Part shown: positions 2,997-44,974 of the stretch, one piece after another
Position numbering within the stretch: position 1 is the stretch's first letter
Layout: each line of letters begins with the position of its first letter
From: Escherichia phage nieznany
Reading direction: 5' to 3' (one strand)
Sequence record: NC_052659.1
DNA: 64,000 bases
Translations under genes and position numbers: made by a program
The notes under the pieces: generated by a model
What the model was told of the DNA's origin: nothing
Database searches by the model: none
What the model saw: the letters and a program-made list of their open reading frames with translations, nothing else

Positions 2997-3796
2997 TGCC
3001 AAGACGTGTATATTTTATTAGTGGTGCGGGACTAAGTGCTGACAGCGGAATCCAAACATTTCGCACAGAAACAGATTCTGGAAAGGCATTATGGGATGAA
3101 TACGATTTAACAGAAGTCTGTGACATTTTCAACTTCCGTGACGGTTATCAGCAAGAACAGGGTATTCCTGATGCTATGGGTGGCTTAGATGTGGAAGGAT
3201 ATAACCTCTACCGTAAAACTCACGACTTCTACAATAAACGTCGCGTGGAATTAGAGAAAGTTGACCCGAATCCAGCACATCTTCAGATTGGAGAATGGTT
3301 CGAAAAATACGGTGCAGAAAGGATTATTAACATTACTACTAACGTTGACGATCTATTAGAACGCGCTGGAATCGATAGAGAAGAAATATTGCACGTTCAT
3401 GGTTTCTTGCCAGAAGTTGTTGTTGATAACAAAATTATCAAAGATGTGGGTTACGCAGCTATTGATGTAGACGATTACAAATATGTGAAGCCTAATGTGG
3501 TGTTTTTTGGTGAGAATGCACCACTCTACACAGACATGTATCACAAACTGGATCAACTAACATCACAAGATATGGTTATCGTTGTAGGCTGCTCTAACCA
3601 AGTAATCAACTTCAACTGGGAACTCTTCCCTGCCCTGAATATTGGGGTTAAGATGGTTGTAGTTAACCCAGGTTTGAATTTTGTAGAACAAACTCTCTAC
3701 GAAGAACGTGGAGTGCTTGTCTACCGAGAGAAAGCAGGAACAGTCTTCAGTGATGAAGGCTTTATCAAAATGGTTGAAGACCATTTAAACAAATAA
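2996..3796 (+). CDS. Sir2-family (sirtuin-like) NAD-dependent protein
   Basis: FISGAGLSADSGIQTFR matches sirtuin GAGIS..GIP.FR NAD-binding motif; NITTNVDDLLERAG..HVHG matches sirtuin N.D.L..AG..LHG region. Confidence 0.65.
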   Translation: MPRRVYFISGAGLSADSGIQTFRTETDSGKALWDEYDLTEVCDIFNFRDGYQQEQGIPDAMGGLDVEGYNLYRKTHDFYNKRRVELEKVDPNPAHLQIGEWFEKYGAERIINITTNVDDLLERAGIDREEILHVHGFLPEVVVDNKIIKDVGYAAIDVDDYKYVKPNVVFFGENAPLYTDMYHKLDQLTSQDMVIVVGCSNQVINFNWELFPALNIGVKMVVVNPGLNFVEQTLYEERGVLVYREKAGTVFSDEGFIKMVEDHLNK

Positions 3797-14749: not shown

Positions 14750-15196
14750 TTAAACCTCTGTCAAAGAGAAACGCCAATCCTTACTACTACCTACACCAAG
14801 GAAGATATAGTCTCCGGTACTAACGGAATATCCCCCAGCGGGAATCCAATCAGGAATCTCTGGCTTATGGCTGTAGCCATAACGCTCGCCACTCGAATCT
14901 GTTGCAATATAATTAACAAATTCAGGAACCTCTAAAGTTTCACCTTGATACTCTACACGCTTGAAGCCATCTTCCACTTCTTTCTCACCTTCTACCAGAG
15001 AAGCAAGAAGTTTGATGTGAGGGCAAGTGAAATCTTGTCCTGGATAACGTGAACGGATATCAGTTAACAATGCGATCACAGCATCAGATAACTCTTTATA
15101 ATCCTCATATCTTACAAATGTGCCTTCTGTCGGATCATCAGGACACAAACGCCAAACATCATTGCAGTTTACAGCATAATGTCGCACTTTAGTCAT
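14750..15196 (-). CDS. hypothetical protein
   Basis: 148-aa ORF. Confidence 0.5.
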   Translation of the reverse strand: MTKVRHYAVNCNDVWRLCPDDPTEGTFVRYEDYKELSDAVIALLTDIRSRYPGQDFTCPHIKLLASLVEGEKEVEDGFKRVEYQGETLEVPEFVNYIATDSSGERYGYSHKPEIPDWIPAGGYSVSTGDYIFLGVGSSKDWRFSLTEV

Positions 15197-39681: not shown

Positions 39682-40235
39682 ACACAGGTGTGATTGCCGA
39701 AGCCATCCAGAGTTATGGACGCTTTGCTGAAATGTTAGATGTTCCTTATTTAGTGGATGCAGATATTTTGGCATTCACACTGCCACCTGGCAAAGAAGAT
39801 GCTCCTTTGGGGCATCCTAATGGGAAGTTTTATGTTGCCAGTGCCGAGCAATCATTCTTGCAAATGGAAAAGGATGGCTACGAGTTTATCGCTGGTCATC
39901 CCTACATGGCCCTGACACCATGTTACCGCACAGAGGAAGTGTTGGATGATTCTCACTTCAACATCTTCTTGAAGCTGGAGTTGATTGAGTTCTATCCCAG
40001 CTTTGGTGAAGTGAAAGAGTATGCCGAAGAAATGCGATACTTCTTCTGGACCTACTACAAAGTCCAAACAAGAATTGTAGAAACAGAAATAGGGCTTGAC
40101 GTGGAAGACATGAATGGTTTAGAATTAGGGTCATTCGGAACAAGATTGTCCCCACAAGGTCATCCATATATTTATGCAACAGCCATAGCCGAACCTCGTG
40201 CATCTATGGCAATTAACAGGAGGAATCATGATTAA
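39678..40235 (+). CDS. hypothetical protein
   Basis: 185-aa ORF. Confidence 0.45.
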   Translation: MNTGVIAEAIQSYGRFAEMLDVPYLVDADILAFTLPPGKEDAPLGHPNGKFYVASAEQSFLQMEKDGYEFIAGHPYMALTPCYRTEEVLDDSHFNIFLKLELIEFYPSFGEVKEYAEEMRYFFWTYYKVQTRIVETEIGLDVEDMNGLELGSFGTRLSPQGHPYIYATAIAEPRASMAINRRNHD

Positions 40236-41613
40236 TAAATTTGCCCGTAAACAGGAAGTTGCTGAAGCAGCACGTCGCGCTGGTGTGTATGACAAATTGT
40301 GTGAAGGTATTGTGAAGGTGTATGGCTGGGAGGGAGAAGATGATCCAACCTGTTCAGGTGATTTTGCAATGAACGATATGACCTTCCCATATATTTCCTA
40401 CAATGCCTCCACTGGTGAAATAAACGGTGTAACCAGCACCAGTGTTGATCGTTATCCAGATGCAGAACAAACCACAGGAGGTTACATGTTAGATCTGATT
40501 CTTAAGAAATCAGGGTTATTGGGAATCGAAGACGTTTTCGTAGATGCAGATAGTTTATCATTAGGAGATGTTGTTAAACTACTGGTAGACTTTAGATTTG
40601 CAACAGGTAAAAGCTTCTGGAAGCCAGAAGATGCTGAACGTTTGAAGACAATCGATCCAAGTATGTATGAACTGCCACAATATAAAGATAAACAATTCCG
40701 CAAGGTTATCTTCTTTGATCGTCAAGCAGGCTTAGATGCAATGCATATTGAAGTTGGGGATTTACCACGCCCACACTCTGCTGCTACTGGTGATCGCGGC
40801 CTTGTAGAAGTCACGGCTCAAGAATTTAAAAATATGTTTGCTGCGAAATACGATGAAGCTGCGCCTGTGCCAAGTATTGAGGAGCAAGAGGAAGAACAGT
40901 TTGTAGCGGAAGATACTGCATTTGAATATCTGCCGAACACAGGTGTTATGCCTTCAGAAGATTTCGTGCAGGTTCGCTTCAACAATGGTCAAACAGATGT
41001 TGCTAAGGGAACAGTATTCACTTGGAATATCGACAATCTGGAAGAGTGGGCGATTAAAGAATACTTCATTCTCCCGCGCACGGCAAAATACAACTATAAT
41101 AATGGTGGACACCGCCCTTGTGGTGGTCACGTAGAAGTTCTCTTTCGTGACGGAACTACGGATAGTGGATCGGCTACGCATTTCACTTGGGGTCATGTTG
41201 GATATGATCGGGATATTGTTGGTTGGCTTCCAACTAACAACCCTAAACCACGTTACCGTAAGCCTCGTAAGAAGCCTCCGGTAGGTAAGAAGAGTGTCGT
41301 TCGTGTCCTCTACACTACGCAACAGACCTACACATTTAAAAATGTGGTAGACGTGCAAGTAACCGAGGAGCGAGTTTATATCCAATATGATCGTGAAGTT
41401 ACAGAGGGTATCAAAGAATCGGTTACTACCGAAATTGAAAATAAGCTTGTTATGGCAATCATTGTGGAAGAAAGTAAAGTAGAGAACGGTAAAGCCTATA
41501 CTGTTCGTGATAGCTTCTTGCGTAATATCGATGGAACCTGGGATTACAATGGACACGATGGGACCGCTGTGAAGAACGGTAAGATCATGGGAAGACAATT
41601 CCTCTCCAAATGA
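40228..41613 (+). CDS. hypothetical protein (461 aa)
   Basis: ATG 40228 after AGGAGG; long ORF with no recognised motif. Confidence 0.5.
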   Translation: MINKFARKQEVAEAARRAGVYDKLCEGIVKVYGWEGEDDPTCSGDFAMNDMTFPYISYNASTGEINGVTSTSVDRYPDAEQTTGGYMLDLILKKSGLLGIEDVFVDADSLSLGDVVKLLVDFRFATGKSFWKPEDAERLKTIDPSMYELPQYKDKQFRKVIFFDRQAGLDAMHIEVGDLPRPHSAATGDRGLVEVTAQEFKNMFAAKYDEAAPVPSIEEQEEEQFVAEDTAFEYLPNTGVMPSEDFVQVRFNNGQTDVAKGTVFTWNIDNLEEWAIKEYFILPRTAKYNYNNGGHRPCGGHVEVLFRDGTTDSGSATHFTWGHVGYDRDIVGWLPTNNPKPRYRKPRKKPPVGKKSVVRVLYTTQQTYTFKNVVDVQVTEERVYIQYDREVTEGIKESVTTEIENKLVMAIIVEESKVENGKAYTVRDSFLRNIDGTWDYNGHDGTAVKNGKIMGRQFLSK

Positions 41614-41623
41614 TAAAACTTAA

Positions 41624-41648
41624 AGGCGCACTTTGCGCCTTTTTTGAT
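41624..41648 (+). terminator. rho-independent terminator
   Basis: AGGCGCACTTTGCGCCT hairpin followed by TTTTTTG. Confidence 0.5.
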
Positions 41649-41716
41649 TTCCCTCAAAGCTTTTTTCGGTTGGAAGAGGTAGAATAATAGTTCTACTCAC
41701 AAAATAAGGATTAATA

Positions 41717-42589
41717 ATGAAAGATTTGTACCAAGATGTTTTTTCTTTTTTAGATCGCACTTCAGAAACATACACTAGAGAGAATGCAAACAAACCTTCC
41801 CACCTCGTTAACACGCATAGGGATCTCTTGGCGGGGATTTTAAGCAAACATATGGCAATGACACAGATACTGCCAAAAAACTTGTCAGAATGGCATACAG
41901 AAGGTTTTGGACATATTCACGACTTGGATTATCTGCTCTCTCCTCTTACAAACTGTTGTCTTGTTAATTATCAAGATATGTTAGAGAATGGTTTTAAGAT
42001 CGGTGCTGCACAGATAGAAAAACCAAAATCTATTGGAGTAGCTACTACCGTGCTAACTCAAATCATCCAAGCTGTTGCCTCCAGTCAGTATGGAGGTCAG
42101 ACGTGTGCGCACATTGATAAAGGTCTTAGTCCTTATGTTGAAGCTAGTTTCCTTAAAAACATGGAGATAACCAAACGTCGCTACGGTTGTTATGCAAGGA
42201 AAGAAGCCCTAGAAATGACCGAACAAGATGTATATGACGCTATGCAAACTCTTTTGTATCAGGTTAACACTTTAATGAGTGTTAATGGACAATCTCCTTT
42301 TATTACAATCAGTATGGGTCTGGATACCTCTGTTTTTGGCAGAATGATCACAGCTAACTATCTTAAAGTGCATAGTAACGGTCTAGGTAAAGATCATGTA
42401 ACGCCTGTATTCCCTAAAGTTATTTTCTTTTTACAAGAAGGTGTTAACATGAAACCTAGTGATCCTAACTACGACCTTAAGCAACAAGCTTTGGCATGTT
42501 GTGCTGATCGTATTTATCCAGATTTTATTTCTGTTCCTTTGAACAAAGAAGTTACGGGGTCAGCAGATGGCACTGTTACGAGTATGGGT
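41717..42589 (+). CDS. nrdD: anaerobic ribonucleoside-triphosphate reductase NrdD, exon 1
   Basis: N-terminal half of class III RNR; frame ends in stop shortly after proposed 5' splice site (..TSMG). Confidence 0.65.
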
Positions 42590-43360
42590 AAACTATAACT
42601 GCTCATGTAAAATCTGCCTAAACGGGGGAACTCTCAACAGAGACAATCCCGTGCTAAACGTAACAGAACTCCCAACACAGAAGAAGGGGGGTACTGATAT
42701 GAGAAAACAAATTCGTGATTTTGAAGGGTATGAAATTGACGAGCTTGGAAATGTTTATTGTACCAGGTATAAGGATGAAAGAATCCTTCGCTCGTGGGAA
42801 GAAATAAACACAGGATACCAACTTGTCAGAATACGTAAAAACAAGAAAACTGTTTGCTTTCGGGTGCACAGACTTGTAGCTGAAGCGTTTTTACCCAATC
42901 CAGACAATTTACCTTATGTGAAGCATAAAGGTGACAATAGGAAAGACAACAGTGTATACAATCTTGAGTGGGGATCTTGTCCAGACAACACGCAAGAGGG
43001 TTACGATAATAACTGTTATGCTTTCTACACAAGGTGTCACAGTGTAAAAGCTACTCATAAGGCTACTGGTGAAGTTTTTTACTTTAAAAGTCTGAGATGT
43101 TGTGCTGACGCTTTAGGGTTGGACAGAAAAAGAATATCTGCAATCTTAAAGCAAGGAGCACCAAATAATTATGATTATGAGTTCTGTTACGAAATGCCTA
43201 ACGACTAGCTGTGATGAATGTAGCAGCGTAGGGTGTAAGCCTATGACACCCCAAATGGTAGACATGCTTTAAGCATGAAGATATAGTCTGATCTGCATGG
43301 TGACATGCAGCAGCACGTAATGGTGCGGGAGTGGCCTTGCGAGCCACTTTGAACATAATG
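42590..43360 (+). mobile_element. group I intron (putative) interrupting nrdD, carrying HNH homing endonuclease ORF
   Basis: Exon 1 ends with T; intron ends with G before TGT(Cys); splicing restores frame giving ..TSMG-CRSFLSYY.. and about 604-aa NrdD. Confidence 0.5.
42699..43208 (+). CDS. HNH homing endonuclease (intron-encoded)
   Basis: GYEIDELGNVY ... VHRLVAEAF ... KHKGDNRKDNSVYNLEW HNH family pattern; own RBS. Confidence 0.6.
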   Translation: MRKQIRDFEGYEIDELGNVYCTRYKDERILRSWEEINTGYQLVRIRKNKKTVCFRVHRLVAEAFLPNPDNLPYVKHKGDNRKDNSVYNLEWGSCPDNTQEGYDNNCYAFYTRCHSVKATHKATGEVFYFKSLRCCADALGLDRKRISAILKQGAPNNYDYEFCYEMPND

Positions 43361-44302
43361 TGTAGAAGTTTCTTGTCATACTATGCAACAGAGCAAGGAG
43401 AAAAATATGATGGACGATTCAACCTTGGAGTAGTTTCTATCAACTTGCCTCTGATTGCTGCGGAAGCGAGAAGTAAAGGAGAATCTTTCACCGATCTTCT
43501 TAATAAACATATGGAGATAGCCTACGATGCTCACATGCTACGTGTAAACCGTATCAGACATACCAAAGCATCTGAAAACCCTATTCTTTTCATGGAAGGG
43601 GCTTTAGCGCGTTTAAATGCCAACGATGAAATTGGTGCTTTGTTTGAAGGTGGTTATGCTTCTATTAGTATTGGTTATGTAGGTCTTGCCGAAGCTTTGG
43701 AAATCCTTTATCCAGAGGAAAAAGATAAAAAGGAACTAGGTAAAAACATTCTGCAACATATGAAAGATGTGTGTGCTGTGTTTAAAGAACGATCTAAGTT
43801 GGCATTTAGTCTTTATGGAACTCCAGCAGAATCCTTGTGCTATAAATTTGCAACAGCTTTAAATGAAAAATATCCAGGTCTGGTAGAAAGAGACTATCTT
43901 ACTAATTCTTTTCATCAACCTGTATGGTTGGTAACAAATCCTTTTGAAAAATGGGATTATGAAGCAGGTTTTGCACAGATTAGCAATGGTGGTAACATAA
44001 GTTATGTCGAAACACCAAACTTAAAGAATAACTTAGAAGCTTTGGAGACTTTAGTAGACTACGCTTATGAACATATTCACTATTTTGGTATTAATCAGCC
44101 CGTGGATCAATGCTTTAAGTGTGGTTTTCATGGAGAATTTAAGGCAACGGCTAAAGGGTTTGAGTGTCCTAATTGTGGCAACCATGAAGAAGAAACTATT
44201 TCTGTAGTTAGACGTGTATCAGGGTATCTTTCTGCCCCTAATTCACGGCCTTATAACAAAGGTAAAATGCAGGAAGTTTTGCAAAGGGAGAAACATCTTT
44301 GA
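43361..44302 (+). CDS. nrdD: anaerobic ribonucleoside-triphosphate reductase NrdD, exon 2
   Basis: C-terminal Zn ribbon CFKCG..CPNCG and glycyl-radical motif RRVSGYL. Confidence 0.65.
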   Translation, partial: CRSFLSYYATEQGEKYDGRFNLGVVSINLPLIAAEARSKGESFTDLLNKHMEIAYDAHMLRVNRIRHTKASENPILFMEGALARLNANDEIGALFEGGYASISIGYVGLAEALEILYPEEKDKKELGKNILQHMKDVCAVFKERSKLAFSLYGTPAESLCYKFATALNEKYPGLVERDYLTNSFHQPVWLVTNPFEKWDYEAGFAQISNGGNISYVETPNLKNNLEALETLVDYAYEHIHYFGINQPVDQCFKCGFHGEFKATAKGFECPNCGNHEEETISVVRRVSGYLSAPNSRPYNKGKMQEVLQREKHL

Positions 44303-44769
44303 ATTTTGCAGGATATGAACCTGTAGATCTTATTAATGGTGAGGGAGTTAGGTGCTCCCTCTGGGTTAGTGGTTGTAGCCACGGTTGTCGTGGCTGTTTT
44401 AACCAAAAAGCCTGGTCTTATTCTTATGGGAAACCGTTTACTGACGAAAATGTAGAGCAAGTTTTAAAAGATTTGTCAAGACCATTTGTAAAAGGTTTAA
44501 CAATTTTAGGAGGAGAACCATTAGATCCGCAGAATATTCACAATGTTAAAAGCCTTATAGAAAAGGTTAGAGACGTTTATGGGTCAAGCAAAGATATAAT
44601 GGTGTATACAGGATATACTTTTGAGGAAGTGCCTTTGTATATTAAAAATCTTGTTGACATTATTGTAGACGGAAAGTACGAAATAAACAATCCAACTACA
44701 AAACCTTTCAGAGGGTCAGATAATCAAAGATTATGGACCAAAACGGCAAGTGGTTGGCAATCAGATTAA
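44299..44769 (+). CDS. nrdG: anaerobic RNR activating protein NrdG (radical SAM)
   Basis: CSHGCRGC Cx3Cx2C cluster; TTG start overlapping nrdD stop. Confidence 0.6.
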   Translation: MNFAGYEPVDLINGEGVRCSLWVSGCSHGCRGCFNQKAWSYSYGKPFTDENVEQVLKDLSRPFVKGLTILGGEPLDPQNIHNVKSLIEKVRDVYGSSKDIMVYTGYTFEEVPLYIKNLVDIIVDGKYEINNPTTKPFRGSDNQRLWTKTASGWQSD

Positions 44770-44782
44770 CTTAGGAGGTTTC

Positions 44783-44974
44783 ATGGTTACATATTTTGCT
44801 GTAGGGGATAGAGTAGGGACGGCAGGAGAACTTTTGAAGAACAGTGATCGGGACGTTAAGGACATTCTTGCAACCCTTGTGGATATTTTACAAAGAAAAG
44901 AGTTGCTTTCTGATCGAGATGTTGCTAAATTACTTGATATCGGAGGAGATGAACTTCAAAGACTTCCATTTTAA
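44783..44974 (+). CDS. hypothetical protein
   Basis: ATG after AGGAGG. Confidence 0.4.
   Translation: MVTYFAVGDRVGTAGELLKNSDRDVKDILATLVDILQRKELLSDRDVAKLLDIGGDELQRLPF

Follow-up and report, generated by a model that had tools for sequence, protein, structure and literature searches.

Split phage nrdD genes and introns in ribonucleotide reductase (RNR) genes have been reviewed (PMC3653736), and several described systems bear on the locus analyzed here, the anaerobic RNR gene nrdD of Escherichia phage nieznany (NC_052659.1), which lies in a stretch of 64,000 nucleotides referred to below as the window. The nrdA gene of Aeromonas phage Aeh1 is split by the free-standing HNH endonuclease gene mobE and yields a functional split RNR, in which two polypeptides assemble (PMC3653736). 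Group I introns of Bacillus and Staphylococcus phages encode the HNH nicking endonucleases I-HmuI/I-HmuII, I-BasI, and I-TwoI. The textbook example in nrdD itself is the T4 intron also known as sunY, which interrupts codon 179 behind its first base (...AYE|YEV) and carries the gene for I-TevII, a GIY-YIG endonuclease, 3' of P9/P9.1. It has no P2, has both P7.1 and P7.2, and is classified as IA2.

As in Aeh1, an RNR gene is present in the window as two open reading frames (ORFs) with an HNH gene between them, but Aeh1 has no ribozyme, whereas in the window the HNH gene is embedded in a complete group I ribozyme. As in T4, the interrupted gene is nrdD, and the ribozyme core is homologous to that of sunY (81% in BLAST pieces, 73% over aligned core columns), with an identical guide sequence (GCUCAU), a similar 3' end (UGAACAnAUUG), no P2, and P7.1/P7.2 present. 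Unlike T4, the window has its insertion between codons 291 and 292, and the passenger is an I-HmuI-like HNH gene in the P6 loop. Judged from sequence, the T4 and nieznany introns are related ribozymes at different sites with different passengers, and membership of the same insertion-site lineage was ruled out by the site (codon 179 versus 291/292) and by the HNH ORF in P6. The product of this ORF is homologous to I-HmuI over its full length, has the N-terminal β-region, the HNH motif, and the NUMOD-like helix-turn-helix tail in the same order, and is likewise intron encoded within a phage DNA metabolism gene; it differs from the I-HmuI group in being only about 30% identical, in the nonconservation of Asp74, and in target gene and host range. 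With high confidence, we interpret the insertion as a mobile group I intron of the IA type, near the T4 nrdD/sunY intron, that interrupts nrdD between the Gly291 and Cys292 codons.

Insertion boundaries and ribozyme core

A 2.8-kb query from the window was 99.1% identical to Escherichia phage nepoznato, identifying the window as a segment of a Phapecoctavirus genome. Only 9 of 308 matching phage records contained the query in one place at ≥80% coverage, and the insert-less Phapecoctavirus relatives listed (ESCO13, phAPEC8, ESCO5, and others) matched it in two pieces, with 72% coverage and 98 to 99.4% identity; nrdD is uninterrupted in most close relatives of the window phage. Alignment with the uninterrupted ESCO13 gene placed the extra DNA at exactly 42590 to 43360 (771 nt; coordinates of nrdD, the intron, and the endonuclease gene are on the + strand throughout), with exon 1 ending in ...ATGGGT (T42589), the insert ending in ...ATAATG (G43360), and exon 2 starting with TGT (43361). 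Exon 1 (41717 to 42589, codons 1 to 291, ending ...T S M G; Pfam NRDD, 6.6e-69), the edge of which was taken from this alignment, is identical to ESCO13 at 866 of 873 nt. Exon 2 (43361 to 44302, codons 292 to 604; NRDD, 1.7e-88; Gly_radical, 2.2e-27) contains the Zn ribbon and the RRVSGYL glycyl-radical motif, and its first codon is Cys292.

Exact excision restores the nrdD reading frame, with no frameshift or stop in either exon. Joining 42589 to 43361 gives a 604-aa protein with the junction TSMG|CRSFLSYY, in which 604 of 604 residues are identical to ESCO13 NrdD. An earlier prediction, made from the sequence of the window without database searches (the original prediction), had proposed this T42589/TGT 43361 junction and a product of about 604 aa, and had suggested alignment with intron-less NrdD homologues as a check; the alignment shows that the proposed junction was exact to the base. 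Its two reading frames were also located correctly. The N-terminal frame, predicted to stop at 42598, is the ORF at 41717 to 42598 and matches positions 1 to 263 of the 562-position NRDD profile, while the C-terminal frame, predicted to resume at about 43331 with a Zn ribbon and RRVSGYL, is the ORF at 43331 to 44302, which matches positions 263 to 562 plus Gly_radical and contains CFKCG...CPNCG as well as RRVSGYL. The in-frame stop that ends the first ORF (TAA, 42596 to 42598) lies two nrdD codons past the 5' splice site, and a stop in the host frame early in the intron is the usual layout of phage introns. An intein was ruled out, as the host frame meets this stop so early in the insert and the HNH ORF is in another frame; a Pfam search of the locus ORFs found no Hint domain. 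Alignment with T4 NrdD pairs Cys292 with T4 Cys290, placing the junction directly before Cys292; in class III reductases this residue is the catalytic cysteine, at the tip of the finger loop.

Helices P1 and P3 to P9.2 were assigned by eye, and P3 through P9.2 are all present, including the P3/P7 pseudoknot. P1 is formed by the last 6 nt of exon 1 (AUGGGU, 42584 to 42589) and the internal guide sequence (GCUCAU, 42602 to 42607), with a wobble pair, U42589·G42602, at the splice site. The 5' half of the core (42614 to 42661) comprises P3 (UCUGCC, 42614 to 42619), P4 (ACGGG, with partner CCCGU), and P5 (UCUC/GAGA), all three with compensatory changes, followed by the GC of P6 plus the P6a 5' strand CGUAACAGAACUC (42649 to 42661), with P6a complementarity of 13/13 bp. 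The 3' half (43209 to 43360), supported by Rfam alignment, pair counts, and the minimum free energy (MFE) fold, comprises P7.1 (GCUGU/GCAGC), P7.2 (GGGUGU/ACACCC), P3' (GGUAGA), P8 (CAUGC/GCAUG), J8/7 (AAGAUA), P7' (UAGUC, 43284 to 43288), P9 (CUGCAUG/CAUGCAG), P9.1 (GCAC/GUGC), P9.2 (AGUGGC/GCCACU), and the 3' end ...GAACAUAAUG. The intron was predicted to end in G, and G43360 is indeed conserved across all homologues examined. Identification of the 771-nt insert as an IA-type group I intron draws on presence/absence polymorphism, Rfam, and covariation.

Pairs were counted on an alignment of six homologues (the window, phiWec187, PD06, Avunavirus 19-1-2, T4 nrdD, and Vibrio phage 184E37.1). 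P6a and P9.1 were misaligned by MAFFT, excluded from the count, and checked by eye, while the Vibrio P8, also misaligned, was kept in the count and lowered P8 to 87.5% paired. Under the named structure, pairing holds in 96.5% of cells, and changes on both sides occur in 16 of the 57 pairs. None of 500 shuffles scored as high, and sliding the 3' partners by 1 to 3 columns left 33 to 47% pairing and 0 to 3 compensated pairs. Compensated pairs include three in P3, two in P4, one in P7 (U-A to C-G), four in P7.1, and three in P8. Every position of P1 is paired in all six sequences, and its U·G is invariant.

Covariance models gave a divided result. At the gathering score, Rfam found no family in the whole 64-kb window. 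A permissive scan of 42500 to 43450 produced a partial match to RF00028 (Intron_gpI) at 43071 to 43310 (39.7 bits, E = 1.8e-8, gathering 50), in which P3', P8, J8/7-P7' (AAGAUAUAGUC), and P9 were placed and the 5' half was forced into the ORF. The window copy falls below the threshold because of the 510-nt ORF in its P6 loop. The 290-nt PD06 copy, which lacks the endonuclease gene and has a core 100% identical to that of the window, scored 70.4 bits, and the naturally ORF-less relative in 19-1-2 scored 79.8 bits, both above the gathering score of 50; the T4 nrdD intron scored 105.3 bits. The model search that had been proposed as a check therefore falls short for the window itself and succeeds for the ORF-less copies, and the assignment to group I is borne out by the comparative and covariance-model evidence taken together. 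A second exact copy of the J8/7-P7 signature AAGAUAUAGUC (= AAGATATAGTC) is present at 14802 to 14812 (+) but was rejected as a second intron: it is antisense to local genes, gave no Rfam signal even at E ≤ 1, and is within the motif count expected by chance.

The 3' ~150 nt had also been described as GC rich and structured. GC content is 48% in the 3' 152 nt and 45% in the 5' 109 nt of the insert, compared with 38.8% for the window, so the first part of this description stands. The second stands by comparison but not by folding energy: an MFE fold of the 3' part alone gives back the P7.2, P8, P9, P9.1, and P9.2 hairpins, yet the energy of the 152 nt is not significantly low (z = −1.23), and "structured" must therefore rest on the comparative evidence.

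The final ~80 nt of the intron, running from P9.1/P9.2 up to its 3' splice site (43280 to 43358 of the window), also gave an 85% match to Escherichia phage V5 (DQ832317, 58834 to 58913), in the terminase large-subunit region of V5/rV5. That terminase gene has been published as intron containing (PMC3606486), and the match suggests that 3' modules may be common to introns of rV5-like phages.

The same ribozyme evidence bears on a split gene without splicing, in which insertion of an HNH cassette would have left nrdD encoding two polypeptides that are translated separately and then assemble, as for Aeh1 nrdA/mobE. Annotation leans this way, with two NrdD fragments in the GenBank records of nepoznato, VEcB, PD06, and others, and so do some local signals: a Shine-Dalgarno-like GGGAG (43326 to 43330) lies 6 nt before an in-frame TTG (43337), where the phi92 record annotates a ribosome binding site (RBS), and the last three intron bases, AUG, are in frame with exon 2. 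Aeh1 also provides a known functional precedent (PMC3653736). We nevertheless consider a split gene extremely unlikely. The DNA between the NrdD fragments is a complete covarying group I ribozyme that is kept in 279- and 290-nt copies without the endonuclease gene, the break would fall directly before the catalytic Cys at the finger-loop tip, and the fragments would bear extra residues (KL on the N-terminal piece, 8 to 10 on the C-terminal piece). The second fragment has a single candidate RBS and start codon, both of which sit inside the P9.2 hairpin, and exact excision gives a protein 100% identical to an uninterrupted homologue. The original prediction had itself set two functional NrdD fragments against its proposal, and the comparison with homologues, in which the ribozyme is retained and the spliced product agrees at 604/604 residues, does not support them.

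On the group I intron reading, the nrdD-nrdG transcript would fold into the ribozyme, with P1 forming from exon-1 AUGGGU and the guide GCUCAU. Exogenous guanosine would attack after U42589, the freed exon would then attack after G43360, and the ligated mRNA would encode the full-length 604-aa NrdD. During mixed infection, the HNH endonuclease would nick or cut an intron-less nrdD near the insertion site, and repair would introduce a copy of the intron along with a short piece of exon 2.

The endonuclease gene and its overlap with the ribozyme

The predicted HNH endonuclease ORF, 42699 to 43208, proved to be a homing endonuclease gene in the P6a loop, encoding a 169-aa protein of the I-HmuI HNH family with a NUMOD-like DNA-binding tail. 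The protein aligns end to end with I-HmuI (PDB 1U3E; E = 8.7e-9, residues 3 to 166 against 4 to 172) and matches PHROG 59 HNH endonuclease (3.8e-34) and PHROG 959 (1.9e-27). Among the roughly 1,600 phage records retrieved with it by tblastn are those of I-BasI, I-KsaIII, and the HNH of the Twort nrdE intron. A Shine-Dalgarno-like sequence, AAGGGGGG, is located 7 nt 5' of the ATG. The frame remains open upstream through the 5' part of the intron into exon 1 (42567 to 43208, +), with an ATG at 42567 in a frame other than that of nrdD; this openness is probably chance, the annotated start at 42699 being the one with the Shine-Dalgarno-like sequence.

The last ~30 nt of the ORF (43179 to 43208) double as the P6a 3' strand (GAGUUCUGUUACG), J6/7, and the P7 5' strand. 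The final codons read E F C Y E M P N D stop, and the stop codon, UAG, overlaps the P7 5' strand GACUA. The same EMPND* ending and core overlap are found in the Vibrio homologue. From this overlap, endonuclease translation and ribozyme folding are likely to compete.

In the ββα-metal motif of the I-HmuI structure, Asp74 is reportedly a metal ligand, His75 the general base, Asn96 catalytic, and Asn87 structural. His76, Asn88, and Asn97 of the nieznany protein align with I-HmuI His75, Asn87, and Asn96 and are invariant in the homologue alignment. At the position of Asp74, the nieznany protein and the Felixounavirus homologue have Lys, and the Vibrio homologue has Cys. Because of this Lys, catalytic competence is not certain, and endonuclease activity is best described, from the residues present, as plausible but not certain.

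Several points weigh against a working mobile intron in nrdD, among them the Asp74 substitution, the Rfam score of the window copy (39.7 versus 50 bits), and the folding energy of the 3' 152 nt. Pfam matches of the endonuclease are just under the curated cut-offs (HNH_3, 22.0 versus 24.8; NUMOD-like, 25.4 versus 27). P10, pairing exon-2 UGUAG with CUAUA (42593 to 42597), is tentative because 4 nt separate it from P1; the Vibrio copy has a canonical P10 (UGCC/GGCA) adjoining P1. Finally, we infer both actual splicing and endonuclease activity, and for splicing this also counts on the negative side.

Distribution of the intron and transfer between genera

Empty nrdD sites are found in most Phapecoctavirus and in Justusliebigvirus muut, inny, W22, and others, while the intron together with its endonuclease gene is found in the window, nepoznato, DIJ07P2, 536P1, VEcB, phiWec187, SD2, and arall. 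In other relatives, the endonuclease gene has been lost via two different deletions, one leaving the 279-nt phi92-type intron and the other the 290-nt PD06 type. In the phi92 copy (positions 1401 to 1679 of locus L012), the deletion joins ...GGGGGTACTG to TTACGAAATG, and in the PD06 copy (positions 1501 to 1790 of locus L004), it joins ...GAAGAAGGG to TTATGATTATGAG. Read from these junctions, the two are independent deletions of the endonuclease gene, each of which leaves enough P6a to pair.

The copies in phi92 (NC_023693, Justusliebigvirus), PD06, VEcB, and phiWec187 are the same intron at the same site, with cores 99 to 100% identical to that of the window, but they reside in another host genus, with exons only 71 to 78% identical, and phi92 and PD06 are without the endonuclease gene. 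For example, the introns of the window and Justusliebigvirus phiWec187 are 99.4% identical, against 71% for exon 1 and 78% for exon 2. The window core, taken from the 5' splice site through P9, is matched at 100% by those of phiWec187 and PD06, and the endonucleases of phiWec187 and VEcB are 99% identical to that of the window at the protein level.

A trace of this exchange remains in exon 2. All 10 exon-2 differences from ESCO13 are synonymous and fall in its first 38 nt (43361 to 43398), a stretch that matches the Justusliebigvirus allele at 37 of 38 positions; over its other 904 nt, exon 2 does not differ from ESCO13 (100% identity), and exon 1 has no such tract. Co-conversion is a hallmark of homing (PMC2988022). 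The 99.4% intron identity combined with a one-sided exon-2 tract of ~35 nt indicates recent homing from a Justusliebigvirus-like donor, an intergeneric transfer with one-sided co-conversion. Among Justusliebigvirus alleles, those with and without the intron are distinguished only by exon-2 positions +3, +4, and +6 (UGUAGA versus UGCCGU), and UGU AGA as the first exon-2 codons is specific to intron-bearing alleles; possible reasons for these changes are P10, target immunity, and the ancestral donor. A diverged copy of the intron is present in Vibrio phages at the same SYMG|CRS site, with the endonuclease in the same loop and about 50% identical to that of the window by tblastn (52% in alignment).

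These data also bear on whether the intron is present but dead, through loss of the ribozyme, the endonuclease, or both, with nrdD effectively a pseudogene that is tolerated as the anaerobic reductase is dispensable in the laboratory. Replacement of the I-HmuI Asp74 metal ligand by Lys would fit such decay, as would the repeated loss of the endonuclease gene in relatives, the form that decay usually takes in the homing cycle, and T4 I-TevIII is an example of a defunct intron endonuclease (PMC2988022). A dead intron is very unlikely, however, given a core 100% identical to those of phiWec187 and PD06, in which all helices, J8/7, P7, and the terminal G are retained, and given two intact exons with no frameshift or stop. 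Both the 99.4% intergeneric identity and the co-conversion tract, which is still fresh, indicate that homing succeeded very recently. In addition, Lys or Cys at the Asp74 position is common to ~50% identical homologues and for that reason looks more like a property of the subfamily than like a lesion.

Some nrdD loci retrieved in this comparison have further breaks. In Vibrio phage F96 (locus L007, 1 to 3669), a second HNH gene lies at 312 to 1241 between NrdD fragments, with another break at 3288/3289, and in Avunavirus 19-1-2 (locus L006, 2241 to 2601), a 360-nt gap separates fragments; these are probably additional introns or frameshifts. Records labeled as Campylobacter jejuni phages A150 (GenBank MG065639), A145 (MG065645), C3 (MG065656), and A110a (MG065689) match the Justusliebigvirus coliphage nrdD junction at 98.8%, and that of Campylobacter phage C2 (MG065655) contains the whole intron at 84% identity. 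The host label looks doubtful.

Annotation of nrdD and relation to the T4 intron

Downstream of nrdD, on its 3' side, nrdG starts at 44299, and a terminator-like hairpin is found upstream at 41622 to 41642. A promoter/terminator scan of 41500 to 44900 found sites no more numerous than in shuffles and is thus uninformative on endonuclease expression, and ARAGORN found no tRNA or tmRNA gene in the whole 64-kb window. Just 5' of nrdD, a 471-aa ORF (40198 to 41613, +) goes by the name "ribonucleotide reductase," in some cases with "class III" in front, in the records of ESCO13, nepoznato, and phi92. Pfam gave no match to it at E ≤ 0.01, and the RNR name therefore looks carried over from its neighbor.

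The annotated Phapecoctavirus and Justusliebigvirus records examined, with the exception of phi92, list two NrdD-like fragments plus a hypothetical protein and no intron, and the records of DIJ07P2 and 536P1 are without annotation. In the phi92 GenBank record, nrdD is annotated as a "spliced variant" with two exons joined over 279 nt. A literature search found no paper that reports this intron from Phapecoctavirus, and the words "intron" and "homing" are both absent from the nepoznato paper. The present analysis chiefly serves to correct the annotation to one full-length anaerobic RNR and a mobile intron in place of the fragments.

The guide sequence shared with T4 sunY at a different site offers a speculative lead on how group I introns switch sites. 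The T4 target (AUGAGU|) and the window target (AUGGGU|) are one base apart and the guide is unchanged, a pattern that reverse splicing into an ectopic site would predict and endonuclease-driven homing would not. It is possible, though on balance we lean against it, that a single ribozyme moved between nrdD sites and that the two introns are its sister lineages. Under such a history, each lineage would have captured its own endonuclease, a GIY-YIG enzyme after P9 in T4 and an HNH enzyme in P6 here. If true, the series running through Stephanstirmvirinae, Vibrio, and T4 would document in nature how an intron switched sites and how endonucleases were then captured independently.

As a member of a well-known kind that has mostly gone unannotated, the nrdD intron leaves the understanding of group I introns unchanged. 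What it adds is a second nrdD site, exactly at the catalytic cysteine codon, that is occupied by a relative of sunY, the textbook T4 intron. For the phages that carry it, the sequences compared here place all stages of the homing cycle within Stephanstirmvirinae: empty sites, an intron with its endonuclease gene, two independent deletions of that gene, and a recent intergeneric transfer with a short tract. This intron family thus shows the homing cycle in nature with unusual completeness within one phage subfamily.

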